A DNA stretch of 64,000 nt from a virus (IMGVR_UViG_3300021420_000028:2570-66569); one strand, 5' to 3'. Counted from the stretch's first letter, positions 16,466 through 51,676 are shown. The notes: generated by a model not told the origin, from the letters alone. Made by a program: numbers and translations.

Positions 16466-18321
16466 ATTCAAAAGACAAGGGGCGAATCTGCCTCGGCGAG
16501 CATCTCTACGACGGGCAGATGCAGTTCATAACAGCCGTCTTTGACGCGCTGGAAGCGGACATCCATCACATTTATTGCCTCAAGAGCCGGCAGCTTGGCA
16601 TTTCTACGATCGTTCGCGCCTTGATCGCGTTCTACGTCGGCATCCACGACGGTCTCAAAGGCGCTTTGATCTTCGACACAAGTCCCCACAAGGAGAGCGC
16701 GCGCAAGGAGCTCGTCACGCTCATAAAGAACTTGCCGCGCAGCCTGCGCTTTCCGGAAGTTCAGGGGACCGGGTCGGGCAATCGCGAGAGCCTGACCCTG
16801 ATGAACGAGTCGGTGATCCTCTTCATGTCGGCCGGCGTCAAGGAGAGCAAGTCCAGCGGTACGCTGGGCCGCTCCGAGGGTTTGACCGTCGCGCATCTCA
16901 GCGAGCTTTGCTCGTACGAAAATCCTACTGGCATAAAAGCTCTGGAACAGTCGTTTTCTGACGAGCATCCAGATCGGCTTTACATTTATGAGTCGACCGC
17001 CCGCGGTTACAATATGTGGAAAACGATGTGGGATAAAGCGAAGGCCGACCCCCATCATTGCAAGTGTCTATTTCTCGGCTGGTTTTCGAAGCCTAGCCAG
17101 AGCATCCCACAAGAGCATGCTGATTTTCAATTGTATGGACTCGCCCCACCGACGACGGAAGAGGCGGTTCGGATCAAGGCAGTGAGGGACCAGTACGGCC
17201 ACGTCATAACGCCCGAGCAGCTGGCTTGGATTCGCAAGAAGGTGAATCCCGAGGTGAACGCCGAGAACGACTCGGCTGTTGAGGAAGACGACACGATCAT
17301 GCTTGCCGAGCAGGCCTGGACGGAAGAGGAGGCTTGGCAGCAGACGGGATCGGTATTTTTTGCCGGTGCCGACTTGACCGACATGACGAACAAGCATGTC
17401 AGTCGCAAGTTCAAGTCTTTTATGTTCCTGGCTGGCGAAGAGTTCGCCGACATGAAAATTTACCGGTCGGAGAATCCCCGGTCGACCGAGTTGAAGGTGT
17501 GGGAAGAACCAGCCCCGGAGGGTGTCTATGTCGCAGGAGTCGATCCCGCCTATGGAGAAAACGAGAACAACTGCAATTCTGCAATTCAAATCCTTCGATG
17601 CTATGCGGACGGGGTCGACCAAGTTGCTGAGTACGCTTGGCCTCTCCAAACAACACGTCATCTTGCATGGACCTTGGCGGCTATCTTGGGATGGTACGGC
17701 GCTAGTCCTAGAGCCGTTATCCGATACATCCTCGAACTCAACGGTCCCGGCACCGCCGTCTACAACGAAATAAAGGCGTTGAAGTTCTACATTGAGAACG
17801 CGACTTATGTTCAGAAGCCGCTGGAAGAACGCGGGCTCATGAATCTGTTTCAGAACGTCAAGACTTATATTTATACCCGTCCGGATTCGATGGGGCCGGG
17901 GTATAATTATCACTGGCTTACGAATACCCGTTTGAAGATCACGATCATGGAGCAGCTGCGCGACATCGCGTCTAACGGCAAGTTGCGCATCCGGTCCATG
18001 GATCTGATCGAGGAGATGCGGTCGATCTCGCGGGAAGGCGATTCGATCGGGGCGCCGTCGTCTATGCGCGACGACCGGGCGGTTGCAATGGCGCTCGCCA
18101 ATTATTATTGGATGACCAAGATTCGCCAGGGGCTGATCGGCGAGCGGCGCACCCGTGCTGCGGAGGAATCCCGGCAGCGGCTGTCGATAGTTGACCAGGT
18201 GACGCTTTTCAACCAGAATAGCTTGGAGACGTTTTTTGCGGCCAAGCAGGCGGGGCGGCGCCGAGATGCAGTTGCCGCCACTCGCAATGCCTGGCGCTAC
18301 GGAACGGGTCGGAGGTATTGA
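16390..18321 (+). CDS. terL: terminase large subunit
   Basis: LKSRQLGIST Walker A, AHLSE Walker B, ESTARG, GVDPA and DDRAVA nuclease acidic motifs. Confidence 0.92.
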   Translation: MAGWSEAKRDRVEAAFYAFLARCYINSKDKGRICLGEHLYDGQMQFITAVFDALEADIHHIYCLKSRQLGISTIVRALIAFYVGIHDGLKGALIFDTSPHKESARKELVTLIKNLPRSLRFPEVQGTGSGNRESLTLMNESVILFMSAGVKESKSSGTLGRSEGLTVAHLSELCSYENPTGIKALEQSFSDEHPDRLYIYESTARGYNMWKTMWDKAKADPHHCKCLFLGWFSKPSQSIPQEHADFQLYGLAPPTTEEAVRIKAVRDQYGHVITPEQLAWIRKKVNPEVNAENDSAVEEDDTIMLAEQAWTEEEAWQQTGSVFFAGADLTDMTNKHVSRKFKSFMFLAGEEFADMKIYRSENPRSTELKVWEEPAPEGVYVAGVDPAYGENENNCNSAIQILRCYADGVDQVAEYAWPLQTTRHLAWTLAAILGWYGASPRAVIRYILELNGPGTAVYNEIKALKFYIENATYVQKPLEERGLMNLFQNVKTYIYTRPDSMGPGYNYHWLTNTRLKITIMEQLRDIASNGKLRIRSMDLIEEMRSISREGDSIGAPSSMRDDRAVAMALANYYWMTKIRQGLIGERRTRAAEESRQRLSIVDQVTLFNQNSLETFFAAKQAGRRRDAVAATRNAWRYGTGRRY

Positions 18322-24045: not shown

Positions 24046-24119
24046 CAATGTGCTTGCGTTCGACATATGAGCAGCCTAGTGTGGGGACGGTTAAACCCGT
24101 TTTCCATAGGAGTCTTCTC

Positions 24120-24815
24120 ATGACGCGGATGACGCTCGAACGAGTTACGCTGACCTGTATGAATTGCCAGCAAGAATTCTCAGTTAACGGCGCGCAGGCG
24201 AAAGCTTATGAAGCGCGTCAAGGCAAGGTCCGAAAGTATTGTTCTTCCGAGTGTTTTAACGTGCACAGGAAGATTCCGATTCCGACTTTTAACTGTGCTC
24301 ATTGCGGTAAGCTGACTGAACGAAAAGGTTATAAGAACGCAAAGGGTTCGTTTGGCATTTTCAACTATAAAACTAAGTTCTGTTCGATTAGCTGTTCGGC
24401 CAAGGCGCAGTTTCGAAGAAAAGATTTCGGTGTCGGACGAATTGATAAGTGCGGTTATCGCTTGTTGAAGCGCGGCGGGCGCTACGTTCCTGAGCATCGG
24501 CTCGTGATGGAAGCGCATATTGGGCGCTTGCTGCGTTCCGAAGAAACCGTTCACCATATTAACGGCCTGAAGTTGGATAACAGGCTAGAAAATTTGGAAC
24601 TTTGGGCCGCGAATCACGGCAAAGGGCAGCGAGTTTCCGATCAAGTGGCGTGGGCGATCGAGGTACTTAAGAATTATCCCGAATACGCTCGCGAGCGAGG
24701 GTTCGAGATTCAGCCTGTGAAATCAGAGGGTTCGACATCCGCTGTCCCTCCGGCAATCTTGCACATTTCAGAAACGGAATCTGCGTACGTTTCTGGTTGT
24801 GCCGGAATAACTTAA
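24120..24815 (+). CDS. HNH homing endonuclease with Zn-finger repeats
   Basis: CxxC...YCSxxC repeats; EHRLVME..IGR.L...[19 protein letters not shown]. Confidence 0.9.
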
Positions 24816-28260: not shown

Positions 28261-28602
28261 ATGGGACCGTTGAGTGCAAAGTTGCGCAGCGTCGAGGGTG
28301 GTGTCGCCCATTGGTGTCCTGCGTGTGATGAGTCGCATGTTTATCGCGTGCCGCGATGGATGTTTGATGGAAATGTTGATTCGCCGACGTTTTCGCCCAG
28401 CATGCTAATTAGTTGGGGAACTTGGGGCGATGACGATCCGGAGGACAAGGAAAAGTATGACGGGCGAATTTGTCACTATTTTTTGACGGCTGGAAAGTTG
28501 GCGTATTGTGGCGATAGCACGCATGCGTTAGCTGGGCAGACTGTCGATTTACCAGATTGGCCTAAAGCGTACGAGGAGCGTCCCGGTGCCGATGACGCTT
28601 AA
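28261..28602 (+). CDS. DUF6527-like Cys/His protein
   Basis: HWCPAC..H, W.FDGN..SPTFSPS, CHYFLT.G...YCGDSTH. Confidence 0.7.
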   Translation: MGPLSAKLRSVEGGVAHWCPACDESHVYRVPRWMFDGNVDSPTFSPSMLISWGTWGDDDPEDKEKYDGRICHYFLTAGKLAYCGDSTHALAGQTVDLPDWPKAYEERPGADDA

Positions 28603-29530
28603 CCAATACGTCGAGGACGTTCAAACCTTCTTGCGTGACAGCAAGCAGGATTTGCTCGATCCGCAGGACATCATCAAGTACATCAACCGCGCTCGCCGGG
28701 AGATCGCGATCCGGACGCAGTGCGTGCGCGTTCTCACGCCGATCACGGGAGCGGTTATTGGAGCATCGGTTGTTTCCGGAGGTTCAGGGTATGGTAGCGG
28801 GACCACGACGATAACGCTTACGCCGCCTGATTTTCCTTCTGGCGCTGGACCTTTTCCGAACGGGAGTCAGGGCTCCGTTACGCCGATCGTCAGTGGCGGT
28901 TCGATCACGGGCGTGAATGTCGTTTATGGCGGTGCTGGCTACTGGCAGCCATCGTTCTCGATCACTGGGGCGGGGAGCGGGGCGACGGTGACGCCGGTTT
29001 TGTCCAAGATCGAGCAACTAAGTCAAGGCCAGGAAGTATTGAATTTTTCAGACGTAGACTTGACTCCGTTTCCAGGAGTACAGTCCGTGTACGCCGTACA
29101 ATCGGTAAGTGTTCTTTATAGCGGGTTTAGGTATTCGTTGATTTGTTACTCATTTTCTACTTACCAAAGCTTAATCCGCATCTGGGCTCAACAATGGCAA
29201 TACGTGCCGGCGGTATTTGCCCAGTACGGACAAGGTACAAACGGCACGCTATACTGCTATCCGATCGCTTCGCAGAATTGGCAGGTTGAGCTAGACTGTT
29301 ATTGTCTGCCTCAAGACTTGCTGACGGATTTAAGTGTTGAAGTTATACCGGACCCGTGGACCGATGCGGTGGCTTATTTCGCTGCTCACCTGTGCTACTT
29401 GAGTATTCAGAATTTTAATGCTGCAAAATACTATGAGGACATGTTCAATAGGCGATGTTTGGGGTACAGCAACGCCGCGCGGGTTAGTCGCGCGACTTCG
29501 CCATATGGCAGGTACGCGGGAGGGGCGTGA
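28586..29530 (+). CDS. head-to-tail adaptor-like protein 2 (paralog of 27495) with GxGY insert
   Basis: YINRAR...DAVAYFAAHLCYL aligns with adaptor 1. Confidence 0.6.
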   Translation: MPMTLNQYVEDVQTFLRDSKQDLLDPQDIIKYINRARREIAIRTQCVRVLTPITGAVIGASVVSGGSGYGSGTTTITLTPPDFPSGAGPFPNGSQGSVTPIVSGGSITGVNVVYGGAGYWQPSFSITGAGSGATVTPVLSKIEQLSQGQEVLNFSDVDLTPFPGVQSVYAVQSVSVLYSGFRYSLICYSFSTYQSLIRIWAQQWQYVPAVFAQYGQGTNGTLYCYPIASQNWQVELDCYCLPQDLLTDLSVEVIPDPWTDAVAYFAAHLCYLSIQNFNAAKYYEDMFNRRCLGYSNAARVSRATSPYGRYAGGA

Positions 29531-30260
29531 TGGAATTATTTACCAATGCTCGCGCTATACGAATCATGTCTTCGTCCGTGCCCGTGAACTTGAGTAAGTT
29601 CACCCCGAAAAGGATAAATCGACAATTGTCAGTAACGTACCCCTTTGCGGGTTCTATGCGGTCTATACTGGGAGAAAAAATAGATCGTCCAGGGGAGACA
29701 AGATCAAAGTCGATTCCCGTTAGTTTGCACTTGCCGTTCCAGTTATCTTCACACCAAGCTTCAGTGAGGTTGAACGGAAGCTGTTTCTTGATGCAGCGAT
29801 GCCTAGCGCCCGTGAGCAGAGGTAGCCATGGATGCTTTGCCTTTTCGTAAATCGCTTTTTCTGATCCTCGTGTTTCGCGCATTGCGGCCCATGTCGCTCT
29901 GTCGCGCGCTCGGTACTCAGCTAGATGCTGTTGCCGCAGCGCGATGGATTTGGCTTTTAGTTTTTCGGTGTTTTCGGCATACAGCAGTTTTTCCATGCAT
30001 GTATCAGAGCATGTTCGTTGCCTCGAATAGCGTGTTTCAAACGCATTTCCGCACGTGGCACAAATTATTCGTGTTGAAGGCGATCTTCTTGATAAAAAAG
30101 CCCGATAGCTTCGTTCGCGTGCCGCTTCCTTGTTCCCAGCGTACCAATTATCATAACTGCACTGTTTGGAACAACACGTATTGCCTTTTCGGGAAGGTTG
30201 AAAAAGCCGCTCGCAAGCAGCACAAGTGGTTGGTGCGGGTTTCGGTTTTGCTTTTGTCAC
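29484..30260 (-). CDS. HNH-like homing endonuclease (antisense insertion)
   Basis: Two CxxC..CSxxC fingers; CKLTG...SPSIDRIEPAKGY..DNCRF...N..K. Confidence 0.8.
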   Translation of the reverse strand: MTKAKPKPAPTTCAACERLFQPSRKGNTCCSKQCSYDNWYAGNKEAARERSYRAFLSRRSPSTRIICATCGNAFETRYSRQRTCSDTCMEKLLYAENTEKLKAKSIALRQQHLAEYRARDRATWAAMRETRGSEKAIYEKAKHPWLPLLTGARHRCIKKQLPFNLTEAWCEDNWNGKCKLTGIDFDLVSPGRSIFSPSIDRIEPAKGYVTDNCRFILFGVNLLKFTGTDEDMIRIARALVNNSITPLPRTCHMAKSRD

Positions 30261-30268
30261 GGTTAATT

Positions 30269-30297
30269 TTTGTAGTGCGACGCACTACATTTGTCAA
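30269..30297 (-). promoter_or_regulatory. promoter with palindromic operator, copy 4
   Basis: TTGACA on the - strand (30297-30292), 17 bp, TACAAA; TGTAGTG-cgacg-CACTACA 30271-30289. Confidence 0.7.
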
Positions 30298-30309
30298 GGG
30301 CTTCCTCTG

Positions 30310-32574
30310 ATGCCCGTCCAAGGCAACCCCTACGTTCCTCCCGCTCCCGGCCCCCTCGTCATGGAAATGTTCGAGGGGATGAACACGAGCACGTCTCGCG
30401 TCGGCATTCCTGATGAACAAGTCAAATGGCTGGACGGGTTCTTCCCTTTAGATCACCACAACCTCCGCACTCTCTACGACGTCGGCGCCACGCTCTACAC
30501 CGCGGTCGGCACGACGATCGTTTTCTTCGGCTTCGTCAACATCTCCTCGACGCCCTACGCGATTATTTTCCAGGCCGACGGCTCGGTTGTCGCGGTCAAC
30601 GTAAACACGGCGGTGGTCACGACTATTTTAGCGGCAGGCACGATCGTGGTGCCATCTCAGCTCACGATTGGGCTCTCTCAATGGGGGCAGCAATACGCCA
30701 TTATCGTCGCTAATCAGGCGAACGGCTACTGGTTGTGGGATGGCTTGATTACCTATAGCACGGGGACGATCGCGCCAAACGTAGTGTTGAGCAACAATGG
30801 TTCCGGATATGTGTCTCAGCCGGCCATAGGACTGATCGGCGGTAGTGGTTCCGGCGCCGTATTTACCTCTTCTATAAACAACGGATCGGTAGTATCCGTT
30901 CAGATCGTCAATCCCGGTACCGGGTATTTGGCCTCCGATACTCCTACTCTGACGTTCGTAGGCGGCAATCAGGCGGGCACCGGCGCCAGCATATACGCCA
31001 ATTTGGGACATCATGCGGGTGGTTCCGGCGCGGTTATTGTCGTGACCATGGTTTACGAACCCAATGTGCCGGCGTATAATGCTTATCCTACCTTGACCGT
31101 GCCCGGTTCAGGATACGGGCCTAATACTAAAGTAAATGTTTATAATAATGGAAACGTGGTTGTTGGTACTGCACTCAAAATAACGTGCTCAGTTGTTGGC
31201 GGTTCTATTGCCAGCATAAAATCAACTTTTCCATCGTTGTATAATACCGCAACCCCTGTAGTCACTGCGACCGTGGTGGATACCGGGTATTACGCAATAA
31301 CTTCGGCAACGGTAGATCCGTCGCACGAAGGTTCTGGATACAGCAACTACCCGGTTCTCACTGTTGTCGACGTAAACGGAAGCATTCAATCCTCCCCCGT
31401 CTTGACAGCCAATGTGACGGGTGCTGGAGCCTCTGTTACTTCTGTAAACATAATATCGGGCGGCATATTTGCAGCCAACGTGGCTCCGACAGTGGTAATT
31501 ACCGACGTCGCGACCAATGCTGCCGGCTCTATCACTATCATGCCCTATGGCGTCAGCGGCAACGCGGTCGAAACCTATTCCGGCCACGTGTGGGTTGCCA
31601 ACCAGAACAATTACAGCTGGTCCGCGCCCGGCTCGGCGTCCAACTTCGCCACCAGCGCGGGCGGCGGCTCGGCACAGTCCGCGGACTCCTACCTCAAGAT
31701 CGGCTACACGCGCCTGATCCAGTCGAATGGGTTTCTCTATCTGATCGCCGATTCCTCGATCGACTACATCTCGGGTGTCCAGACGGCGGGCACGCCGCCC
31801 ACGACGACCTTCACCAAGCAGAATGCCGACCCGACGATCGGCACGCCCTACCCGTGGTCGGTCATCCTGCATGGGCAGGATCTGCTGTTTTCCAATTCTG
31901 TCGGCATTTATGGTGTTGCCGGAGCTCGCCCGACCAAGATCAGCGCCATGCTGGATGGTATCTGGGGCACCGGCAACCTTAACCTGTCCGCAGCGCATGC
32001 GACGATCTTCAAACGTGAAGTGTGGATGACGCTGACGACTTTCGTCAATCCGCTCACAGGCGCGACGGTGACGGAGCCGCTGATGTGGGATGGCAAGCGC
32101 TGGTTTGCTTCGCCGCAGAACATGAACATGATTTTCATCGGCAGCCAGGAGCTCAATTCCGTCTTCACGGCCTACGGCACTGACGGCACGATCGTAGCGC
32201 CGCTGTTCACGACCCCGTCCACCAACTTCACCAAAGTCGTGGAGTCGAAGCTATGGGCTGAACCGGGCGGTTACCTGCTCAACAAGGCGACGGACCGCTT
32301 TTGGGCAATTGCCAATTACGCCTCGATCGCGTCGCCGTCGATCGTCCTGTCGATCGACGCCGTGTCGGCCGATCCGAACGTGGCGGGCAGCATTGTCTCG
32401 ACGTCGGCCGGCTACACGATCCCCGGTCCATCGATTACCGGGCACTGGGTCACGCCCCCGCAGGCCGTAGGCCAGCAAGGCATCCTGACGGGGATGACGA
32501 TCAAGACGAATTGCGCCGACATGACGCTGATTTCTGCTATGATCGACAACAAAATCGTCAGATACAGAGGTTAG
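30310..32574 (+). CDS. tail nozzle/tail tubular protein B-like protein with inserted GxGY repeat domains
   Basis: About 750 aa, beta-rich, FEGMN near the N-terminus; lies between the adaptors and the ejection proteins. Confidence 0.6.
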   Translation: MPVQGNPYVPPAPGPLVMEMFEGMNTSTSRVGIPDEQVKWLDGFFPLDHHNLRTLYDVGATLYTAVGTTIVFFGFVNISSTPYAIIFQADGSVVAVNVNTAVVTTILAAGTIVVPSQLTIGLSQWGQQYAIIVANQANGYWLWDGLITYSTGTIAPNVVLSNNGSGYVSQPAIGLIGGSGSGAVFTSSINNGSVVSVQIVNPGTGYLASDTPTLTFVGGNQAGTGASIYANLGHHAGGSGAVIVVTMVYEPNVPAYNAYPTLTVPGSGYGPNTKVNVYNNGNVVVGTALKITCSVVGGSIASIKSTFPSLYNTATPVVTATVVDTGYYAITSATVDPSHEGSGYSNYPVLTVVDVNGSIQSSPVLTANVTGAGASVTSVNIISGGIFAANVAPTVVITDVATNAAGSITIMPYGVSGNAVETYSGHVWVANQNNYSWSAPGSASNFATSAGGGSAQSADSYLKIGYTRLIQSNGFLYLIADSSIDYISGVQTAGTPPTTTFTKQNADPTIGTPYPWSVILHGQDLLFSNSVGIYGVAGARPTKISAMLDGIWGTGNLNLSAAHATIFKREVWMTLTTFVNPLTGATVTEPLMWDGKRWFASPQNMNMIFIGSQELNSVFTAYGTDGTIVAPLFTTPSTNFTKVVESKLWAEPGGYLLNKATDRFWAIANYASIASPSIVLSIDAVSADPNVAGSIVSTSAGYTIPGPSITGHWVTPPQAVGQQGILTGMTIKTNCADMTLISAMIDNKIVRYRG

Positions 32575-32578
32575 AGCA

Positions 32579-33457
32579 ATGATTTACGATATGTCCGTTC
32601 CGTGTCCGCTGGACGACCATCCCGTTACGTTTAAATTTGAACTGGATAAGCGTAATAAAAACAAAGCTTTCATCATGGATTTTTTCCAGAAGGGGCTTCT
32701 TTATGAGCCCGAGATTTCATGGTTCATGCTCCGGGCGATAAAACCAGGCGATTTCGTCGTGGACGTCGGCGCCAATATTGGTGTTTTCACGGTTCTCATG
32801 TCCAAGATGGCAGGGCCTGATGGACTCGTACTGGCGTTTGAGCCTGATGCAGATAATCTTTCGTGTTTAAAGAACAATTTGCGTATAAACAATATCAGCA
32901 ACGTCGAGATTGTCGAGCGCCCCCTGTGGATTCGAGAGGAAGAGGTTAGATTGTACGAATGTAAGGATACGACTGGTAGTCACGCACTTTGGGATGTGTC
33001 GCTGTGGCCTGGCAATGAGCTGACCCGGCACGATGGCGTCAAGTCTAAAGCTTTCATGGCGTGCACGTTGGAAAAAGAACTGGCCCGAACAGGGCGGAGG
33101 TGCGCTTTCATCAAGTTGGATACCGAGGGGGTCGACGAACCCATCTTGAAGTCTCTCGGATCGCAGCGTCCTGATTACATAGTATCAGAGTTGAACCCGT
33201 TCGGCATGCTTCAGGTTGGTTCTGATAACGACGCGATGCGGACGCTCATGTCGAGTTATGGATATGAGTGTTTTTTCATTCACAGGGATGACCGACTGCC
33301 TTCGCTGATTCCGGCCAGTTCCAAGCTGATGAACGGTCCTAACGGCTGTATCGTGATGAACGTGCTGTTCTCGACGTTGGAGAAGGTTGGCGAGGTCTAT
33401 CCGTATGTATCAAGCATAAACAAGTGGGACTTCTTGAAAAAAGACGTAGTCAAATGA
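32579..33457 (+). CDS. FkbM-family methyltransferase 2
   Basis: YEPE, VDVGANIGVFT, AFEPD and IKLDTEG motifs. Confidence 0.88.
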   Translation: MIYDMSVPCPLDDHPVTFKFELDKRNKNKAFIMDFFQKGLLYEPEISWFMLRAIKPGDFVVDVGANIGVFTVLMSKMAGPDGLVLAFEPDADNLSCLKNNLRINNISNVEIVERPLWIREEEVRLYECKDTTGSHALWDVSLWPGNELTRHDGVKSKAFMACTLEKELARTGRRCAFIKLDTEGVDEPILKSLGSQRPDYIVSELNPFGMLQVGSDNDAMRTLMSSYGYECFFIHRDDRLPSLIPASSKLMNGPNGCIVMNVLFSTLEKVGEVYPYVSSINKWDFLKKDVVK

Positions 33458-35791: not shown

Positions 35792-36358
35792 ATGATTAAC
35801 TCACTGGAAAAGAACATTGCCATGGTCCGTTGGCGAACCATATTCGTGCCGTTGCTCATCGGGGCTGCTTGCTCCGGGTGGGTGAGCGTCGATTTTTGGG
35901 ACGCAAGCAGACAAGCGTTGCTGGTGTGTCTTTCGGTCATAGCCGCAGGGGTGTTAGTCCGTCTCGCGCGTGCGCTTCCGTTCACCGTCGCTGACCAATA
36001 CGAGCTCGATGAAATCCGGAGCCTTACGAGCGCTGTCTCGCAAATAGCTCGATCGTTGCGGGCTCTGCTGATCGCGGTGCTTGTGGGGATGATTGGTCTA
36101 GTCGTCGCTAAACCGCTGCTTGATTTTGCAGCAGCCACTCCTGTTCTTGCCGAACATCTTGCGCTGGCCGGTTCGTCAATCTCAGGCCTACTTGGAGTCG
36201 TCATCGGATATGTGTTCTTTCGGATGCTGCAAGTGGTGAGCAGCGATCAAAGTCTGACGGAACTGCAATCAAAATTCATTGTACGCGCCGTCGAGCGCAA
36301 GCAGGCCGAACGATTTGAAAAGCAGCAGGCAAAGTTTTTCAAAGGAACGAACGAGTGA
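35792..36358 (+). CDS. four-TM membrane protein (moron-like)
   Basis: Four hydrophobic helices; inserted between ejection genes. Confidence 0.65.
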   Translation: MINSLEKNIAMVRWRTIFVPLLIGAACSGWVSVDFWDASRQALLVCLSVIAAGVLVRLARALPFTVADQYELDEIRSLTSAVSQIARSLRALLIAVLVGMIGLVVAKPLLDFAAATPVLAEHLALAGSSISGLLGVVIGYVFFRMLQVVSSDQSLTELQSKFIVRAVERKQAERFEKQQAKFFKGTNE

Positions 36359-42157: not shown

Positions 42158-42290
42158 TCCGAAGCAGCCTCCTGTCATGCTTGAACCGTGGCAGTGGGAG
42201 ATTTGGCAACCGCTATTGGACCGCCTGAAGAAGGAAAAACGCGATGAGCGACCCGGCACGAAAGTGGGAAGTCATTCAGGACGAGCCTGA
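42120..42290 (+). CDS. hypothetical protein
   Basis: AGGAG RBS before ATG 42120; overlaps neighbours. Confidence 0.4.
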   Translation: MVDPEIYDELRPDPKQPPVMLEPWQWEIWQPLLDRLKKEKRDERPGTKVGSHSGRA

Positions 42291-42549
42291 AGAGACGGAT
42301 GCTCCTTTGACAAAGGCTCAGGAGCGACAAGACGCCGCACCTCCTGGGCTCGATCTCCTGTTGCTGAGCTTGAAGACGCTGTCTCAGCGCACGCTCTCTG
42401 CCATCGCCAATCTCTTCACCCTGGTGACCATGACAGGCACGTGGTGGTTGTGGTACAAGACGCCGGATCCTAATCCGACCCAGATCGTGTCTCTATCGAT
42501 CTTCGCCGCGTTCGTGCTTGCGGCCAATTGGCTGGTGAGGCGGAAATGA
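42244..42549 (+). CDS. two-TM membrane protein
   Basis: Acidic N-terminus, two C-terminal TM helices, basic end. Confidence 0.65.
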   Translation: MSDPARKWEVIQDEPEETDAPLTKAQERQDAAPPGLDLLLLSLKTLSQRTLSAIANLFTLVTMTGTWWLWYKTPDPNPTQIVSLSIFAAFVLAANWLVRRK

Positions 42550-42998
42550 AGCGAAACGCTCTTGTAGTCGTATTCACTACAATATTATTGCTGGTCGCTG
42601 GAGTCAACCCGCTTCGAGCGCAAAGCAATGTGCGTCTTGCGCCCCCAAACCTTGGGCTCCAGAGCCAAACTTGCGGCTCGGCCGTGTCAAGCTGCGTCTT
42701 GAAGGCCAGCAACGGCTTCTTGCTGGGGGTTTACGCCGAATGCACGGCGGCTTGCTGGATCATGGTGTTCAATACTACAACCGCGCCAAGCAACGGATCT
42801 ACGACTGCGGGGGACGGAAGCGGGGCGTCCGGTAACTTGGTCGATTGCGTCGACGTGGCGGCGGGTTCGTCCCGATCCCTCACTTATCCGAATTACCCCG
42901 TATGGTATTCGGTCGGAATCACGGTTGCCATCAGCTCAACCGCGTGTGCCACGCTGACACTTTCCACGGTTGGTTTTGTGCGAGGAACCTATCAATGA
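42546..42998 (+). CDS. signal-peptide-bearing beta-sandwich protein (6 Cys)
   Basis: MKRNALVVVFTTILLLVAGVNPLRA-Q signal peptide. Confidence 0.7.
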   Translation: MKRNALVVVFTTILLLVAGVNPLRAQSNVRLAPPNLGLQSQTCGSAVSSCVLKASNGFLLGVYAECTAACWIMVFNTTTAPSNGSTTAGDGSGASGNLVDCVDVAAGSSRSLTYPNYPVWYSVGITVAISSTACATLTLSTVGFVRGTYQ

Positions 42999-43972
42999 TC
43001 TGGAGAATCCTCGTATTAATGCTGCTTGCCCACGCTGCTTGGGCACAGCAGATATCGGGCGGCGCTGGGGGCGGCTCATCTTCTTCCCTCGTCATCGGCA
43101 CCACGGCGATCACGGGATGCGGCACAAGCGGGTTTGTGCTGTATAACAACTCCAGCGCCGTAGGCTGTGAAGCGACTATCGTTTCCGGATCCTCGGCGAC
43201 AAGCGGCTGCGGGTTCAGTTCCACTGGAAACTTTGGCGGGGTTTTGTGGAATAACAACGGGGTAGTAAACTGCGCTGTAAATGTGCTCTCGACTGACGGC
43301 TTATCCAGCTTTCGGATTAGCAGCGGTAGCGGCGGAACGTATGGGACCGTTCAGATATGGGATGTTGCGGGGACGGGCAGTAGGGCTGTTTTCATAGGCG
43401 GGGCGTCATTCGGAATTGCACAGTATTCGACGGCGCGCTATGCCTGGAATTCTTCCGCCTCTGGCGATGTTCTAGGCTCGATCGACACGACACTATGCCG
43501 ACAAGGTGTCGGTATTGTCGAGATTGGTTCTGGGACGGGATGTGGAGCCAGCGGCAGTCTACTCACGACGAATATCACAGCCAGCGGCGCAAACGTGCTG
43601 TTTAGTGGGATAAACGCCACGACCGAGACGGACATGCTTTGCTTCAATACGAGCACGGGCCTCGTTACGCACAGCACCGTCGCTCAGCAATGCACGGTCT
43701 CGGATGCAAATCTCAAGCAGGAAATCACTCCGATTGACCCGCGCCGAGCGCTCGCTGTCGTGACTGGTTTTGATCCGATCGAGTTTCACTATCGTCCCGA
43801 AGCCGATATGGGCAGCGATTTGCACATGGGTTTTACGATGCAGCGGGTGGCATCCATCGAACCGAAACTGGCAACACCTAATGGCATCAAATATGGCGAG
43901 TTAAGCCCATGGCTGGTCGCAGCGATTCAGCAATTGAAAGCCGAGATTGATGCTTTGAAGGCGGCTAAATGA
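42995..43972 (+). CDS. tail fibre with C-terminal intramolecular chaperone (peptidase S74) and N-terminal signal peptide
   Basis: MIWRILVLMLLAHAAWA-QQ; SDANLKQEI autocleavage motif, GF..Q and Y..L...LVAAIQQL coiled end. Confidence 0.8.
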   Translation: MIWRILVLMLLAHAAWAQQISGGAGGGSSSSLVIGTTAITGCGTSGFVLYNNSSAVGCEATIVSGSSATSGCGFSSTGNFGGVLWNNNGVVNCAVNVLSTDGLSSFRISSGSGGTYGTVQIWDVAGTGSRAVFIGGASFGIAQYSTARYAWNSSASGDVLGSIDTTLCRQGVGIVEIGSGTGCGASGSLLTTNITASGANVLFSGINATTETDMLCFNTSTGLVTHSTVAQQCTVSDANLKQEITPIDPRRALAVVTGFDPIEFHYRPEADMGSDLHMGFTMQRVASIEPKLATPNGIKYGELSPWLVAAIQQLKAEIDALKAAK

Positions 43973-45228
43973 TAAAAGTCATTGCCGCTATTCTTCTGTC
44001 GACGCTACCTTGCTGTGCAGTGACGTGTGCAGATTTCAAATATGATTATTATCCCTGCCAGAGATTAAATGCGGAATCGTTTCAGGGTATCACAATCGGT
44101 GACCAGATAGCTGCCTGCGTAGCGGCGCTCCCGCCCTCTGGCGGCATTTGCAATGCTCGCGATCTTCCTTCCGGCGGGACCGTCCCAGGATTAACTATTA
44201 CGCAAAGCGGCGTCACAATCGTTGGCCCGTGTGGGACTTTCAATGTCACGGGTACGATCAACATATATAATCCTGACGGAATTTCGGCCTTCAAGTGGGA
44301 GATGTGCGGATCATCTTTCAACGGAAACGGTACCACTCTGGTTTGGCAAGGGGATGCAGCAAGTCCGATGTTTCGCCTGCGCGGCGTGCGCGATTCGATT
44401 TTAAGCGATTTCAGCATTAATTCGAGTTCAGCATTCCCCCTCGCAGAAGGTATCAGATTGGAGACTGCAACGGGGACGACCTCTACTCATCGTATCTATC
44501 GAAATGTAAAGATGAACGGGACCAATACTGGCGGCCTGATTAAAGGCATGCGATGGTGCATCGGCGATGACTGCGGTGGGGCCGGGCCGGACGGCAACAA
44601 TGATGTGGACCTCATCGACGGCGTGCAGGTAGCGAATTACACCAACTGTGCTTTTTCGATCGAAGGCACCCAATCGAAGGCGCATCAGTTCACGGGGCAG
44701 TCATTCTTCGCGGGAAATCAGATCGGCCAGCGTGGCGTCTGTACCACGCAGGCCGCCAACCCTCTCCGTAACTCGGGAAGTTATCATTGGCAAGGCGGCG
44801 CTGGCGGCGGCAATACGGTCGCTGATTTCGATCTCGGCAATCCGAACGACACGATCACGATTCGGGATTTCAATCTCGAAAACTCGGCTCGCCTGCTGCA
44901 GACCGGACCCGTAAGTTCGAGCACGTTTCCCCTTACAATCAGCGGCGGGCGCTGGGCGGCAAACAAGCTCGCTCCCGACAACATCGTCGTGCTGTATCAA
45001 TGGAACGGCCCGTTGTTCGTCGAGGGATCGAATATCGAGGGAGCACCACAGAACGCAACCCCATCGATCAGCCTCACATTTCCAGGCGCGACCGGTGTGG
45101 CGATCGGCAATTCGATCTCATGGGTGCCGGCATCGAGCGGCGGGCAGCCATTCATCGGCAGTGGGACGTGGCAGAAGACGGGTAACCTGCTCACGGACAA
45201 TGCCGGCAACGTGTTCCCGATTCAATGA
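43969..45228 (+). CDS. tailspike-like beta-helix protein with signal peptide
   Basis: MIKVIAAILLSTLPCCA; I.AC.AALP.SGG cap helix; N/G-rich beta-helix repeats. Confidence 0.7.
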   Translation: MIKVIAAILLSTLPCCAVTCADFKYDYYPCQRLNAESFQGITIGDQIAACVAALPPSGGICNARDLPSGGTVPGLTITQSGVTIVGPCGTFNVTGTINIYNPDGISAFKWEMCGSSFNGNGTTLVWQGDAASPMFRLRGVRDSILSDFSINSSSAFPLAEGIRLETATGTTSTHRIYRNVKMNGTNTGGLIKGMRWCIGDDCGGAGPDGNNDVDLIDGVQVANYTNCAFSIEGTQSKAHQFTGQSFFAGNQIGQRGVCTTQAANPLRNSGSYHWQGGAGGGNTVADFDLGNPNDTITIRDFNLENSARLLQTGPVSSSTFPLTISGGRWAANKLAPDNIVVLYQWNGPLFVEGSNIEGAPQNATPSISLTFPGATGVAIGNSISWVPASSGGQPFIGSGTWQKTGNLLTDNAGNVFPIQ

Positions 45229-45232
45229 GGGT

Positions 45233-45463
45233 ATGATGGTGCGCGCTATCGCTATTCTGCTTTGCCTCGCCACTCCTGCCCTGGCTCAGCAGCTCCCGCC
45301 GCTCGATCCTGCCGTCCAGCTCGGCGTCTGCCAGCAGCAGCGTGCCCGCTTTCTCGACGACAGCGAGAAGGCGTCGGCCTACGCGAACCAGTTCCTTGCC
45401 GAGATCGCCGATCTGAAAAAGAAGCTTGCCGAAGCAGAGGCGAAGATTCCGAAAGAAAGATAA
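45233..45463 (+). CDS. small signal-peptide coiled-coil protein
   Basis: MMVRAIAILLCLATPALA-QQ; C-terminal heptads. Confidence 0.7.
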   Translation: MMVRAIAILLCLATPALAQQLPPLDPAVQLGVCQQQRARFLDDSEKASAYANQFLAEIADLKKKLAEAEAKIPKER

Positions 45464-45464
45464 A

Positions 45465-45956
45465 ATGACTACGGTCCAGCAAAGCGGCGCTCCGACTCCC
45501 TATCACATCGCCCAATGGCTAGCGAACGGTGTGATCGGAGATGGTGGGGCAATGCCAACAGGACGACTTATCGTCTCCGGCCGCGGGCTAAATTTCAATA
45601 CGACTGCCGATCAGCCGATCGCAATCCCGCAATACATCACCGCCTTCCGGATCGCCAACATCATCATCACCAATGCTTCGATCAGCCTGACGACGGCGCA
45701 AGGCGGGTTCTACCCGGCCGCCTCCAAGGGCGGCACGCCGATCGTGGCGAACTCGCAGGCGTACTCGGCGCTGACGACGTCGGCCGGGCTGATGACTGCC
45801 GCGCTGGCGCCATTTGGATCCGGCACGCGGTTCTCGGCGGCGAATCTCGGGACGATCGGCGGTCTCCTTGCAATCTGGTTTTCGCTTTCGGTTGCTCAAG
45901 GTGCGGCAGCGGCAGCGACTGCGGACATCTACTTCGTAATTGATAATTTGAGTTGA
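45465..45956 (+). CDS. virion fibre-module protein without signal peptide
   Basis: N-terminus VQQSG.PTPYH...W..NGVIGD shared with the mature 45961 protein; no Cys. Confidence 0.65.
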   Translation: MTTVQQSGAPTPYHIAQWLANGVIGDGGAMPTGRLIVSGRGLNFNTTADQPIAIPQYITAFRIANIIITNASISLTTAQGGFYPAASKGGTPIVANSQAYSALTTSAGLMTAALAPFGSGTRFSAANLGTIGGLLAIWFSLSVAQGAAAAATADIYFVIDNLS

Positions 45957-45960
45957 GCGC

Positions 45961-47916
45961 ATGAAAAAAATTCTCGCACTCCTGTTCGCTCTTGGTGCTT
46001 CTCCGGCGTCAGCACAACAACCGGTTGTGCAGTCAGGTTTTGTAACCCCTGGTCACGGCGTTAATTGGATCACCAACGGCGTAGTTGGTGACAGCGGCGC
46101 CCCGAGCGGCGGCGTCGGCCTGGTTGGCAGCTTCGTCATCAACGACATGCTGTGCGCCAGCGCGACCGGCACAAGCATCTCGGTCATCGACTGCGGGTTC
46201 TCGGCGACCGGGACCAACAATTGGGTCGGACTGCAAAATCTGAACGGAGGCGCAACAGCGCCCACGCGACCAGCGAACGATTCGACGACAAACGTCGCCA
46301 CCACCGCCTTCGTCCAGAATTTCGGTGCCGCGCCCGCCAACGTGATGAACTTCGGCGCGAAGTGCGATGGCTCGACCGACGACACGACCGCCATCCAGAC
46401 CGTCCTGAACACCTACAAGTACGTCCTGATCCCGGCGAGCGGCTCTGGGTGCAAGGTATCGACCTTGACGGTAGGCGCTGCCTTTCTAGGGCAAACGCTT
46501 GTCGGTTCCGGTAGCGGCGTATCTTTTCTAACTTCTTCGTCCACCACGGCTGACATTATACAGGTAGTGGCCACAAGCTACGGAGCTATAATCAGGGATT
46601 TTGGGATCAAGCGCTCAGTTACGGCTTCGGCAGGCTGCGGAATCCACTATTTAGGTTATGTGGACGTGCCAGAAATCGTCAACATGGAGATTCAGCAGCA
46701 ATACGTTGGACTCTGCCTGTCCAGCACTGGTTACGGAATTCTTAGAAACAGTTTTATTCACAATAATATCAGCGACAACTGGACAATCAGCAATCCGACT
46801 ATAAACAATCAGTATCAGTGGTATCTCGACACGGTTCTCGGCGAGAGCAGCGGGGGCCGGTGTTCTACGGTGACTGCGCCACCGACTGCGGCTTTAGGCG
46901 CCACTGTAACCATGGGGACGTGGACTAACGTCTTCTGTTTTGCAAACATGGGAAAAGGTAATGCCTTCCTAGGTAATTCTTCAGTTGGAATTTACGGAGT
47001 TAGAATTATTGGTGGGTTTCACGGGACGGATGGAGACGTCGAAGATTATTTCGACACCTATTCCGGGGGAATCCAAATTAATGGCTTGTTTACGGAGCAA
47101 ACGGCTTCTAATAGTTGCATCCAATTTACTTCCAATGTGTCCGACGCGACGCTGACTGGTGTAGTCGCCCGTAGTTGTTCAGCGGCTGGGATCGCCAGTG
47201 CCGCTACGACAATGTTGAACCTTACTGGCGGGGCGCTGATCACGAACGGTACCTACGGCTTGGTCAACACGGGCATTGCCAACCTGACAGGCGTCGAGTT
47301 CAACGCAAATACGGCGGGAACCGTCAGCAACTCCGGCACCTTCACCGGCCGCGGCAATTTTCCGGCAAGCGTCGACACGCTGCTCGGTCTCGCTCAAGGC
47401 GGGACGAACGCCAATCTCTCCGCGACCGGCGGCACATCCCAGGTTCTCAAGCAGGTTTCGACCGGCGGCGCAGTCACAGTCGGCCAGCTTCAGTGTACCG
47501 ATCTCTCGACCGCTGGTACCGCCTGCACGGCCAACACGGGGACTTCTGGTGCCACCGTGCCCCTGCTCAACGGCAATAACACGAACAGCGGCCTGAACAC
47601 GTTTTCCGGACAGATCGTCTCGACTTTCGGTACTCCCACGATCGCTTCGGGCGCGTGCGGAACTGGAACGAACGGGAGCATTTCCGGCACCAACCAGTCA
47701 GGAAGCATCACAATTGGCGCTTCGGCAACAACGACCTGTACTATTTCATTTTCTACGACTATAACAGCTCCAGGGGCGTGCTTGATCTTTCCCGGCAACG
47801 CGACTGCTGCCGCGACCGGAACGACGGTGGCACGTGTCGGAACGCCCTCGGCAACAGCGTGGGTCGTTACTGGATCCGCACTGGCGAACACCGTATATAG
47901 TTACATCTGTCTGTAA
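45961..47916 (+). CDS. tailspike/depolymerase (pectate lyase 3-like beta-helix) with signal peptide
   Basis: MKKILALLFALGASPASA-QQ; ATTAFV fibre motif; NVMNFGAKCDGSTDDTTAIQ. Confidence 0.85.
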   Translation: MKKILALLFALGASPASAQQPVVQSGFVTPGHGVNWITNGVVGDSGAPSGGVGLVGSFVINDMLCASATGTSISVIDCGFSATGTNNWVGLQNLNGGATAPTRPANDSTTNVATTAFVQNFGAAPANVMNFGAKCDGSTDDTTAIQTVLNTYKYVLIPASGSGCKVSTLTVGAAFLGQTLVGSGSGVSFLTSSSTTADIIQVVATSYGAIIRDFGIKRSVTASAGCGIHYLGYVDVPEIVNMEIQQQYVGLCLSSTGYGILRNSFIHNNISDNWTISNPTINNQYQWYLDTVLGESSGGRCSTVTAPPTAALGATVTMGTWTNVFCFANMGKGNAFLGNSSVGIYGVRIIGGFHGTDGDVEDYFDTYSGGIQINGLFTEQTASNSCIQFTSNVSDATLTGVVARSCSAAGIASAATTMLNLTGGALITNGTYGLVNTGIANLTGVEFNANTAGTVSNSGTFTGRGNFPASVDTLLGLAQGGTNANLSATGGTSQVLKQVSTGGAVTVGQLQCTDLSTAGTACTANTGTSGATVPLLNGNNTNSGLNTFSGQIVSTFGTPTIASGACGTGTNGSISGTNQSGSITIGASATTTCTISFSTTITAPGACLIFPGNATAAATGTTVARVGTPSATAWVVTGSALANTVYSYICL

Positions 47917-48914: not shown

Positions 48915-50270
48915 ATGACCGTTGACCCCGTTCTGGCCCTACTGATCAGCTCCGTTGTCGGCAACGTTGTACTTGGTCTAGTCGCATGGGCCAGCATTAA
49001 CAAGGCGAGCACTGATCGTGCCCAACCATCCGCACCGGCCGTCCCTAGTGGGCCTCCTGTTGCTTGGCCCCCTGTCATTGTCGCCCCTCCTGTTACTGAG
49101 CCACCCGTCAGTCCCATTCCCCCGGCCCCGCCCGTCAGTCCTCCAGTTGTTATCGCTCCACTCGCTCCACCAACGCCCCCGGTGGTTGTCCCTCCAGTCG
49201 TCCAACCAGCCCCTCCCGCCACCATCCCTGCCGGAACCGACTTCGACCAGTGCCTCGCCCTCGTTCTCAAGTACGAAGGCGGCAACGACGACGATCCCCG
49301 TGACCCTGGCGGCCGGACCTCGCGCGGAATACTCCAAACCGAGTGGGATGCGTGGCGGCAAACGCATTCTGGTCTCCCATCGGATGTCTGGCAGGCGCCA
49401 CAAGACCAGGTAACTGCGATTTATCGGCAGAATTACTGGAACGCGCTCTACTGCGACAGCCTGCCTCCGGGCGTGGACCTCGCCGTGTTCGACTACGGCG
49501 TCAACTCGGGCATCAGCCGCTCGGCGAAGCTATTGCAGACGCTGACCGGTGTGGACGTCGATGGCGAGATCGGCCCCGACACGATTGGCGCAGCAGCAAA
49601 GGCCGATCCCGTCAGTCTCGTAGGCCGGTTCTGTGACGCGCGGCTTGCGTTTCTGCAGGGACTCGGGACGTGGGGAACGTTCGGACGGGGGTGGACGTCG
49701 AGGGTGCAGGACGTGCGCACGCATGCACTCGCGATGGCTTCCGCCGCCCCGCAACCAAAGCTGACGCTCCCCTCCGCGGCGAACATCCCGGCCCCTGCGA
49801 CCGCCGCACCGTGGCTTACGCTGGCCCGCAGCCTCGTCGGGACGCACGCGCAGAACGACAATGCCACCATCATTGGCTGGCCCCAGGCCATCGCGGCGAA
49901 GTACCCCGACATGGCTTCCTATGCCGCGCGCTATGTTCACGACTCGACGCCCTGGTGCGGCGTCTTTGCCGCATATTGCCTGGCGATGAACGGCATCCGC
50001 CCGATCTTCGGTCCGACCGACACCGACAAGTGGATGTGGGCGGACGCATGGAAGAATTTTGGAACTGCGGTTGATGTCCCACAGCCCGGCGACGTGCTAG
50101 TGTTCAGGTGGGCCGGCGGCGGCGAGCACGTGACGTTCTACGATCACGAGGACGACACAGACGACAATTACCATTGCACTGGAGGCAATCAGGGCAGCAG
50201 CCACGTCGTCTCGACCGAGGCGATGCCGATGGGGAACTGCATCGCAATCAGACGGCCGCCGGCTTCGTGA
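48915..50270 (+). CDS. modular endolysin: TM anchor, Pro linker, GH108 muramidase, PG-binding region, NlpC/P60-like (TIGR02594-like) domain
   Basis: EGGNDDDPRDPGGRT, FDYGVNSG, VDGEIGPDT, FGRGWTSR; PWCG..H V.F..GGNQ. Confidence 0.88.
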   Translation: MTVDPVLALLISSVVGNVVLGLVAWASINKASTDRAQPSAPAVPSGPPVAWPPVIVAPPVTEPPVSPIPPAPPVSPPVVIAPLAPPTPPVVVPPVVQPAPPATIPAGTDFDQCLALVLKYEGGNDDDPRDPGGRTSRGILQTEWDAWRQTHSGLPSDVWQAPQDQVTAIYRQNYWNALYCDSLPPGVDLAVFDYGVNSGISRSAKLLQTLTGVDVDGEIGPDTIGAAAKADPVSLVGRFCDARLAFLQGLGTWGTFGRGWTSRVQDVRTHALAMASAAPQPKLTLPSAANIPAPATAAPWLTLARSLVGTHAQNDNATIIGWPQAIAAKYPDMASYAARYVHDSTPWCGVFAAYCLAMNGIRPIFGPTDTDKWMWADAWKNFGTAVDVPQPGDVLVFRWAGGGEHVTFYDHEDDTDDNYHCTGGNQGSSHVVSTEAMPMGNCIAIRRPPAS

Positions 50271-51676
50271 TGGAAACAGCGAGGAAAACCATGACAGCAC
50301 CAGCAAGAACAGTTCCAGCCATTCACGCCTACATAAAGCACCAGGGCGACGGTGCGCACGCCACGGAGGCGCCGTGGACCATGCCGGCTCTTGCCACGCG
50401 GTACAGGTTCCCGACCAATCAAGCAGGCGGGGGCGTAATTGGCATCCTGGAGATGGGCGGCGGCTGGACGGCGTCGGACATGACGTCGTTCTTCGCCTCG
50501 ATCGGACAGCCGGTTCCAAGCATCACCGACATCTCGGTTGACGGGACGACCAATACGCCCGGCAGCGACGACGATTTCGAAGTCGCCTTGGACATTCAAG
50601 TGGCTGCCGCAGCGTATTATGTTGCTACGGGACGAGCTGCTGGCATTCGCGTCTACTGGGCGCAGGACATCGCAACTGCATTGCGTGCAGCGACGAAAGA
50701 TGGCTGCTCTGTGTTTTCAATGTCATGGGGTGCCAACGAGGCGGACTGGAATTCAGGTTCCGGCGCCGGGTCGTGCCTCGACATGCAGGCGGCTGCGCTC
50801 GCGGCGGTGGCGGCTGGGACGGTCCCCTTTGCAGCATCCGGCGACAACGACAGTGACGACGGTGCGCGCAAGGCGGCCGTGGATTGTCCGGCGAGCTGCC
50901 CAAGCGTGGTCGGCTGTGGCGGGACGACACTGACAGTGGGCAGTGAAATCGTCTGGAACAACAATCCGGGCAACAATGACGGCGAGGGGACCGGAGGCGG
51001 ATTCAGCAAAATCTTCCCGATCCAATCATGGCAAAAGGGAGTTCCCGCCGCGCCGTCCGGCCTCGGCCGCATGGTTCCGGATGTCGCGAGCTGCGCCGAC
51101 CCAAACACTGGTATCGAGATATTCTGCCAGGGGTCAGCTACGGTTGTCGGCGGCACGAGTGCTGCGGCGCCGCTGTGGGCCGGCCTGGTCGCCGCTTGCG
51201 GGGTGAGACTGGGCTCGATCGCGCCCAAGTTCTACCTCGCGCCGAGCGCTTTCACGGATATCACTTCGGGCGGAAACGGTTCTTACAATGCCGGACCTGG
51301 ACCGGACCCGTGTACGGGCATGGGCTCCCCGATCGGATCGGCCATCGCGACGATGCTGTCCGGAATCGCTACGAATCCGCCGGGGACGACACCGCCGCCG
51401 GTAACCACATCGCCTCCTGCTCCAGGCGTACCTCCTAGCCATGCCGCTGTCGACGCGGCATATGGAGCGCTCGGCACTGCGCTGGCGGCCTACGAAGCGG
51501 CGGTAGCGGCCTGGGTGGCCGGCAGCGCACAAGCGCGCCCTGTGCCGCCGCGTCCGCCGGAAGCTCCTCCGCAGCGCCCCGAACCGCGTCCAGAGCCGCC
51601 ACAAGGCGGTCCGCAACCTCGTCCGCAGCCGGGAAGACCCGGCGGCAACGATCCGCGCGGCGGCGGACGTAGGTAG
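50270..51676 (+). CDS. S53 sedolisin/kumamolisin-like peptidase lacking the prodomain
   Basis: EVALD (Glu/Asp), SMSWG, ASGD oxyanion Asp, RMVPDVA, GGTSAAAP (Ser), DITSG.NG...G.DPCTGMGSP Ca loop. Confidence 0.9.
   Translation: METARKTMTAPARTVPAIHAYIKHQGDGAHATEAPWTMPALATRYRFPTNQAGGGVIGILEMGGGWTASDMTSFFASIGQPVPSITDISVDGTTNTPGSDDDFEVALDIQVAAAAYYVATGRAAGIRVYWAQDIATALRAATKDGCSVFSMSWGANEADWNSGSGAGSCLDMQAAALAAVAAGTVPFAASGDNDSDDGARKAAVDCPASCPSVVGCGGTTLTVGSEIVWNNNPGNNDGEGTGGGFSKIFPIQSWQKGVPAAPSGLGRMVPDVASCADPNTGIEIFCQGSATVVGGTSAAAPLWAGLVAACGVRLGSIAPKFYLAPSAFTDITSGGNGSYNAGPGPDPCTGMGSPIGSAIATMLSGIATNPPGTTPPPVTTSPPAPGVPPSHAAVDAAYGALGTALAAYEAAVAAWVAGSAQARPVPPRPPEAPPQRPEPRPEPPQGGPQPRPQPGRPGGNDPRGGGRR

Follow-up and report, generated by a model that had tools for sequence, protein, structure and literature searches.

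A Predicted Signal-Peptide-Bearing, Cysteine-Paired Fibre and Spike Module in a Short-Tailed, SU10-like Phage

In the textbook account of tailed phages, all parts of the virion fold and join in the reducing cytoplasm. Fibres built for work outside the cytoplasm are described in the available part of PMC10769870, in which the MAT fibres of Bdellovibrio bacteriovorus have a signal peptide, a conserved N-domain, a variable trimeric fibre, and an S74 or beta-sandwich tip and function after export. WceF of Pantoea stewartii is a trimeric tailspike-like beta-helix enzyme whose signal peptide directs it to the cell envelope (PMC7949094, from the accessible portion of that paper). Phage late proteins can also travel via host Sec, as do Lys44 of fOg44, which has a Sec signal, and the signal-arrest-release (SAR) endolysins (PMC6116005, in its accessible sections), and the signal-peptide proteins of P. 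gingivalis phages obey the Q-rule (PMC10367356, in the portion available). A literature search conducted largely without subscription journals found no description of tail fibres or spikes with signal peptides, and the accessible parts of PMC6116005, PMC7949094, PMC10367356, PMC5723332, and PMC4615864 do not describe such proteins. Here, we analyse a 64,000-nucleotide stretch of viral DNA (IMGVR_UViG_3300021420_000028:2570-66569, hereafter the window, which is bases 2570-66569 of a source record of 66,569 bases), in which positions 42546-47916 are filled by six co-directional genes, g1-g6. The module shares with the MAT fibres their architecture and the proposed function outside the cytoplasm, its g6 is compared below with WceF, and its proteins, like Lys44, the SAR endolysins, and those of the P. 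gingivalis phages, are predicted to use host Sec. On the evidence of sequence comparison, we consider export and disulfide-dependent folding of the leader-bearing module proteins highly probable.

Predicted Leaders and the Anchor Motif

The six genes of the module are as follows, with a slash marking the predicted cut site of each leader:

42546-42998, + strand: g1, 150 amino acids (aa); leader residues 1-25, ..NPLRA/QS; 125-aa mature part
42995-43972, + strand: g2, 325 aa; leader residues 1-17, ..HAAWA/QQ
43969-45228, + strand: g3, 419 aa; leader residues 1-17, ..LPCCA/VT
45233-45463, + strand: g4, 76 aa; leader residues 1-18, ..TPALA/QQ; 58-aa mature part
45465-45956, + strand: g5, 163 aa; leaderless
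45961-47916, + strand: g6, 651 aa; leader residues 1-18 (DNA 45961-46014), ..SPASA/QQ

Each of the five leaders has Lys or Arg in the n-region, a hydrophobic core, and an A-x-A-type end. Leader calls were made with our own heuristic n-h-c/-3,-1 scorer, not SignalP, and the criteria for Sec export and cleavage by signal peptidase I were a charged n-region, 7-15 hydrophobic residues in the h-region, a small amino acid at both -3 and -1, and a cut within about 15-35 residues. The scores of g1, g2, g3, g4, and g6 (5.05-6.19) are the five highest among the 76 called genes, and the sole other gene scoring at least 5 encodes a four-helix membrane protein (35792-36358). Leaders are found in 5/6 module genes versus 1/70 others (Fisher p = 1.9e-6). 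An original prediction made from the DNA sequence had quoted these same five leaders, all of which are present; its start for the small gene g4 (45232) was one base off, the correct position being 45233. Shine-Dalgarno (SD)-like motifs lie upstream of g1, g2, and g4, and the starts of g2 and g3 overlap the preceding stop codon. The RR of a Tat twin-arginine motif occurs in none of the five window leaders, nor do these contain a lipobox ([LVI][ASTVI][GAS]C): g3 reads ..TLPCC.., with Pro before Cys, and the others lack Cys at the cut site. This pattern makes it very probable that g1, g2, g3, g4, and g6 are made with cleavable Sec/signal-peptidase-I leaders.

The leaders are also features of the protein families. 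A pattern scan yielded 36 related loci (L001-L036) on viral contigs, mostly of 61-68 kb, with conserved gene order. For g6, an alignment was made with the 22 of 43 homologues that carry its N-terminal module, and in all 23 sequences the leader contains K/R and a hydrophobic core and ends with A/V at -3 and A/G at -1, the cut being followed by Q at +1. Mean identity in this family is 49% over the leader versus 66% over the next 30 residues, as expected for a signal peptide, and it amounts to 66-67% over residues 19-118 and 21% beyond. Judging from this alignment, g6 is a protein with a conserved N-terminal module and a variable distal part, as in virion tail fibres. The survey of homologous fibres that the original prediction had called for thus found leaders on all 23 aligned g6 sequences, on 14/14 g2 homologues, and on 26/34 members of the g3 family. 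A small gene for a two-helix membrane protein lies immediately 5' of the module and has a homologue in the equivalent position in 17 of the 36 related loci; in these 17, leaders occur on 48/125 genes in the 8 kb after it versus 1/101 in the 8 kb before (p = 9e-14). Tat-type leaders occur within the same modules of relatives (L019 10573-11928, L002/L004 6849-8633, and the g3 relative P0088).

In leader-bearing proteins such as g6, a 30-residue stretch directly after the predicted cut site contains an anchor motif, QSGxVTPGHxxxWxTxGVxxDxG, and the same motif lies 3-12 residues from the Met in leaderless proteins (L007, L013, L015, L031, and the g5 family). A gene combining leader and anchor was found by script in 20/36 related loci and by eye in six more (L001, L003, L004, L005, L010, L026). 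Among phages that have the same small partner gene, the large fibre can be leader-bearing (L019, L020) or leaderless (L007). A profile of the motif, built without leaders, was searched against 1.84 billion representatives, and 982 clusters at 50% identity matched at E<=0.001. The best 150 of these comprise 113 leader-bearing and 36 leaderless proteins (98 and 29 by script, with 15 and 7 added by eye), the odd fusion P0115 being set aside. The only anchor-motif gene in the complete record G001 (62,086 bases, terminal repeats) is leader-bearing, encodes 936 aa with 20 Cys, and sits between adaptor-like and nozzle-like genes, and a 1320-aa protein in another relative (L035:4929-8888) unites leader, anchor, and S74. 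We note that P0115 appears to join a g5-type N-terminus to a leader-bearing fibre and that six proteins (P0103, P0112, P0114, P0117, P0119, P0120) have the anchor motif two to six times, with the second copy near residue 185.

Cysteine Parity and Protein Architecture

A bias toward even numbers of Cys marks disulfide-bonded exported proteins, according to the accessible part of PMC2823432. The mature parts of g1-g6 contain 6, 8, 10, 1, 0, and 16 Cys, respectively, which agrees with the even counts originally given for the four larger leader proteins and with the lack of Cys in g5; the single mature Cys of g4 had gone unmentioned, and the g3 leader itself holds two further Cys. The Cys had also been described as lying in neighbouring pairs. 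This description fits g6, in which the gaps are 10-43 residues within pairs and 44-106 between pairs for six of the seven, the seventh being 14, and pairing by position is less clear in g1-g3. The last four Cys of g6 are at residues 566-650.

In the related loci, the Cys analysis covered 519 non-redundant genes, with controls that include spurious open reading frames and missed leaders. Cys accounts for 1.74% of residues in the mature leader-bearing proteins versus 0.75% in the controls, and among proteins with at least two Cys, the count is even in 59/67 leader-bearing versus 109/186 others (p = 5e-6). The g3 family follows the same pattern: within the core that its members have in common, 25/26 leader-bearing proteins contain an even number of Cys, all eight reference Cys columns are kept in 18/34 members, and six are kept in another 9, so that of the 27 members keeping the first six columns, these 9 lose the last Cys pair jointly. 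Four leaderless members keep 1-3 of the 8 columns and have 3-7 core Cys; three of them have another fibre N-terminus, and P0067 lies beside terminase, portal, and head genes. All eight columns are lost in the Tat-type relative P0088. Among anchor-motif proteins of at least 250 aa in the best 150 clusters, 97/97 leader-bearing members have at least two Cys and 89/97 have an even count (p = 1e-18), as compared with 18/25 leaderless members with at least two Cys, of which 9/18 are even. Within the best 150, Cys per 100 aa is 1.77 in leader-bearing and 0.77 in leaderless proteins.

Such an even-Cys bias implies that an oxidizing compartment is needed. To equate Cys richness with export, as the original prediction had done, is too simple, since some leaderless relatives have 14-18 Cys; the leader goes with evenness of the count. 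Export and oxidative folding themselves gain strong support, all of it by sequence comparison, from the conservation of leaders within families and from paired, even Cys in kin-matched sets.

The proteins of the module differ in how much their sequences and models reveal. g1 has no Pfam or PHROG match, and its atlas neighbours are viral hypothetical clusters only; homologues occur in L002, L004, L017, L023-25, and L036. The S74-chaperone fibre that had been expected in the module is g2, a Gly/Ser-rich fibre with a C-terminal S74 intramolecular chaperone at residues 236-292 (PF13884, 34.4 bits versus a cut-off of 22), an intact SDxxxK catalytic motif as defined in PMC10769870 (SDANLK at 236), and a match to the tail fibre family phrog_1980. 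In g3, the spike domain begins directly after the leader, without an anchor motif. The mature part of g4 is charged and probably helical and belongs to no known family; similar small leader-bearing genes adjoin fibres in L001-L006, L012, L030, and L032, and, speculatively, g4 could be a periplasmic helper.

The model of g6 suggests a leader, the anchor motif within a conserved N-module (19 to ~118), a right-handed beta-helix (~128-448), a low-confidence linker, and a C-terminal beta-sandwich (~579-650). Over residues 128-448, the block values of the predicted local distance difference test (pLDDT) range from about 51 to 93 and are mostly >60. Foldseek returned 29 Protein Data Bank (PDB) matches at E<=0.001, including AlgE, GH87, TSP2 and TSP3 of CBA120, and the Sf6 tailspike. 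At the sequence level, g2, g3, and g6 gave no meaningful match to solved structures, and no Pfam beta-helix family matches g3 or g6 themselves at E<=0.01. Relatives in the g3 family of 34 carry PF12708 or PF26209; among the relatives of g3 and g6, PF12708 is recorded only on P0025, P0026, P0035, and P0088. The two beta-helix spikes of the original prediction are thus unequally grounded, g6 by its model and Foldseek matches and g3 only through the Pfam labels of relatives such as P0088. We note as well that the last ~90 residues of g6 (47650-47916, four Cys) are kept among P0003-P0013, whose middle parts differ completely; constant ends with a variable middle are unusual for receptor-binding proteins.

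In the model of the leaderless g5 (pLDDT 83), a hairpin at the N-terminus holds the anchor (about residues 3-29) and is followed by a beta-sandwich knob (34-161). The hairpin is 65% identical to residues 19-44 of P0021, a 630-aa leader-bearing fibre, and the knob is 30% identical (E 5e-6) to the last 118 residues of the same protein, from which we conclude that g5 is a fibre reduced to anchor and tip. Its fold matches are small uncharacterised phage proteins, and Foldseek against the PDB gave none at E<=0.001; the knob has a weak fold match to the tip of Bd2133 (8ok3, E 0.02). The statement that no other receptor-binding gene is evident in the window is mistaken, g5 being such a minimal fibre.

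Possible Assembly at Lysis and Rival Explanations

We propose that the module supplies the proteins by which the phage recognises its host, in a form adapted for export and joined to the particle at lysis, a reading on which our judgement is evenly balanced. Under this proposal, g1, g2, g3, g4, and g6 would cross the inner membrane unfolded via Sec, host signal peptidase I would cut their leaders, four of the five before Gln, and in the course of periplasmic folding, host Dsb would close 3, 4, 5, and 8 disulfides. Also in the periplasm, the S74 chaperone of g2 would self-process, for which no ATP would be required. The head, the short tail, and the leaderless mini-fibre g5 would be assembled in the cytoplasm as usual. 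Holin and membrane-anchored endolysin would then merge the compartments, and our best guess is that g6 would dock via its N-terminal anchor motif, which is common to g5 and the leaderless fibres of other phages, with g1-g3 either riding on g6 or working alongside it, unattached, to bind or cut sugars. The phage would thereby gain fibres that disulfides stabilise against conditions in soil. Finished P22 heads accept tailspikes in vitro, which makes joining at lysis plausible; that the exported proteins do join the particle at this stage we put midway between doubt and acceptance. For g6, the anchor motif and the precedent of Cellulophaga phage phi10:1, compared below, make us lean toward attachment to the virion.

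Several points weigh against this proposal. The leader scorer is our own heuristic and no dedicated predictor, the support comes purely from sequence, and genes were called only crudely in the related loci. High Cys counts also occur in some leaderless relatives (L007 with 14, L015 with 18), and because g1, g2, and g3 have no anchor motif, nothing ties them to the particle. The g5 protein, with the same motif and no leader, could fill the docking sites before lysis, and attachment that occurs only at lysis must compete with dilution. The presence of Dsb in the host is an assumption, and Pfam scans of the phage proteins showed no phage-encoded Dsb, signal peptidase, or glutaminyl cyclase. Finally, the mass spectrometry (MS) detection of phi10:1 proteins is known from GenBank notes only, and co-purifying envelope debris could account for it.

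In the strongest rival, a less probable but serious one, the proteins are exported and never reach the particle. They would instead be free periplasmic or surface proteins, either polysaccharide depolymerases, which would ease release by loosening capsule or slime, or receptor maskers or destroyers that block adsorption of progeny and rivals to the dying cell, and g5 would be the particle's sole fibre. This would suit the direct run of g3 from leader into spike domain without an anchor, the likeness of the g6 core to polysaccharide-active beta-helices, the GDSL esterase and pectate-lyase-like domains in related modules, and the conservation of g5 as a leaderless protein across the clade. Precedents exist in the bacterial export of tailspike-like enzymes, WceF having a Tat signal (PMC7949094, in its accessible portion), and in secreted phage proteins that the available sections of PMC10367356 report, with unknown role, from P. 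gingivalis phages. However, a fibre anchor, for which a free enzyme would have no use, is retained in g6 and in 113 of the best 150 motif proteins, and a leaderless anchor gene is entirely absent from the complete record G001. An S74 fibre with both leader and anchor exists, and the leader-bearing proteins of phi10:1 are annotated as virion proteins.

Quite improbable, in our view, is a second alternative in which the leaders have no role in export, either because internal starts give isoforms that are the virion forms or because an uncleaved N-terminus tethers the protein at the inner membrane for assembly. It draws on the conserved hydrophobic residue before the motif, whose codon is GTG in g6, and on the shared genomic position of leaderless and leader-bearing versions (L007 versus L019/L020; L013/L031 versus L008). 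We reject the internal start, since GTG is found at that codon in only 4/16 non-redundant leader-bearing genes, which reflects general codon use, and no SD motif precedes it. The A/V at -3 and A/G at -1 in 23/23 sequences fit cleavage, not an anchor, the even-Cys bias calls for the oxidizing compartment, and the occurrence of Tat-type leaders in these modules indicates that export is what selection maintains. Least probable of all is that the genes are artefacts of gene calling, or were recently captured from hosts in which they encode secreted enzymes (morons), and play no part in adsorption. Enzymes that hosts secrete normally have leaders and disulfides, and the families are almost unannotated, but a pattern scan of one genome each of 185,579 species gave no g6-family relative (0/46 candidate stretches), and a g3 scan of those genomes gave only two contigs of metagenome-assembled genomes, one with terminase, portal, and head genes adjoining. 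For lack of chromosomal relatives in these genomes, we reject host-derived secreted enzymes. In dozens of viral contigs of 61-68 kb, the families occupy a constant position within the structural operon, and SD motifs, together with overlap with the stop codon before, back the starts in the module, which speaks against artefacts.

Genomic Setting and Comparison with Known Systems

The phage, an uncultured one from soil, is short-tailed and SU10-like and has a 66.6-kb genome. The genes of the window that bear on its structure and lysis are the following:

16390-18321: large terminase
28586..29530, + strand: SU10-type tail adaptor (PF24175, 53.3 bits versus a cut-off of 27)
30226-32574: Ig-domain protein of 782 aa in the nozzle position
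35792-36358: four-helix membrane protein, followed by two large Cys-free proteins (629 and 1225 aa)
42244..42549, + strand: two-helix gene immediately 5' of the module; 101 aa, acidic N-terminus, two C-terminal membrane helices
48223-48552, + strand: holin-like gene, 3' of the module
48915-50270, + strand: endolysin (GH108, PG_binding_3, CHAP) with an N-terminal membrane helix and then a proline-rich linker of ~75 residues

The adaptor at 28586..29530 is the likely docking partner of the fibres. The membrane helix and proline-rich linker of the endolysin make it look signal-anchored or SAR-like, so that the lysis enzyme, too, would use Sec. The opposite strand carries a DNA polymerase and a helicase. 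The two-helix protein could be tied to the exported fibres or to DNA ejection. Located 3' of the endolysin is a subtilase-like (Peptidase_S8) gene (50108-51676) whose product ends in a long proline-rich tail; its longest reading frame overlaps the endolysin end, and its true start is therefore probably further downstream. What looks like a sugar-modifying set, which might target host polysaccharide or phage proteins, is located at 32579-33457, 13208-14257, 5632-6669, and 9159-10172 and consists of two FkbM-type methyltransferases (one within the structural operon), a glycosyltransferase-like protein that begins with a membrane helix, and a nucleotide-sugar epimerase. An HNH endonuclease (24048-24815) lies amid the head genes and a serine resolvase (10340-11050) in the early region.

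The host is probably an alphaproteobacterium, as suggested by a homologue of GcrA (3929-4408; PF07750, 107 bits), an alphaproteobacterial regulator. Gln is at +1 in 4/5 window leaders and in 34/85 non-redundant leaders of the related loci, in which it makes up 3.8% of mature residues, and this recalls the Q-rule of Bacteroidetes signal peptides as given in the available part of PMC5837995. A Bacteroidota host is nonetheless unlikely because SD-like motifs precede 32/75 genes, against a background of 9.6%, and GcrA is encoded. No cultured relative in the phage collection was found by blastn, and tblastn gave only weak partial matches to Nostoc, Rhizobium, and Microcystis phages, with none for g3 or g5.

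Tentatively, and with somewhat less assurance than for this phage itself, we suggest that a large group of tailed phages, in the present case probably infecting soil alphaproteobacteria, builds its virion in two compartments, with heads and tails made in the cytoplasm and with fibres or spikes that are cut by signal peptidase and cross-linked by Dsb in the periplasm, the two being joined at lysis. If so, the size of the anchor family (982 clusters, with leaders on about three-quarters of the best 150) would make two-compartment assembly common, not an oddity. Virion assembly would have an extracytoplasmic, lysis-coupled final step, and host Sec, signal peptidase, and Dsb would be host factors for infectivity. 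Cytoplasmic expression would misfold such fibres, which matters for phage engineering, depolymerase production, and structural work, and host-range predictors or pipelines that discard signal-peptide proteins as "non-structural" would overlook the proteins with which many soil and marine phages actually bind their receptors.

The nearest comparison is with leaderless anchor-motif fibres (L007, L013, L015, L031) and with leaderless spikes that have another fibre N-terminus (P0061, P0067, P0069), which have the same anchor motif or spike domain in the same place of the structural operon. They differ from the module proteins in having no leader and fewer Cys without an even bias, with replacement of the paired Cys columns seen in g3. 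A second comparison is offered by phi10:1 (KC821618, L044 13848-20879), a cultured siphovirus of a Bacteroidota host, in which gp091-gp095 all have Sec-type leaders before Gln. GenBank notes annotate gp091-gp094 as "structural protein, experimental MS/MS proteomics", and gp095 is a pectate lyase. We found no comment on these leaders in the literature. The phi10:1 proteins have no sequence similarity to the window genes, contain 0-2 Cys, and come from a phage of another tail type and host phylum; since phi10:1 is in culture, it permits a direct test of the claim.

The systems introduced at the outset differ in other ways. The MAT fibres are encoded by the bacterium and displayed on its own surface, according to the accessible part of PMC10769870. 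Their architecture is like that of the module, the Bd2133 tip that the g5 knob weakly resembles is one of theirs, and the pattern scan of bacterial genomes gave no relative. WceF is, in the available sections of PMC7949094, the product of a host gene in an exopolysaccharide cluster and has a Tat signal and no fibre anchor, in contrast to g6. The fOg44 and SAR endolysins and the P. gingivalis phage proteins are lysis enzymes or have unknown function and are not of the anchor- or S74-fibre or spike type, which is the type predicted here to follow the same route out of the cytoplasm.

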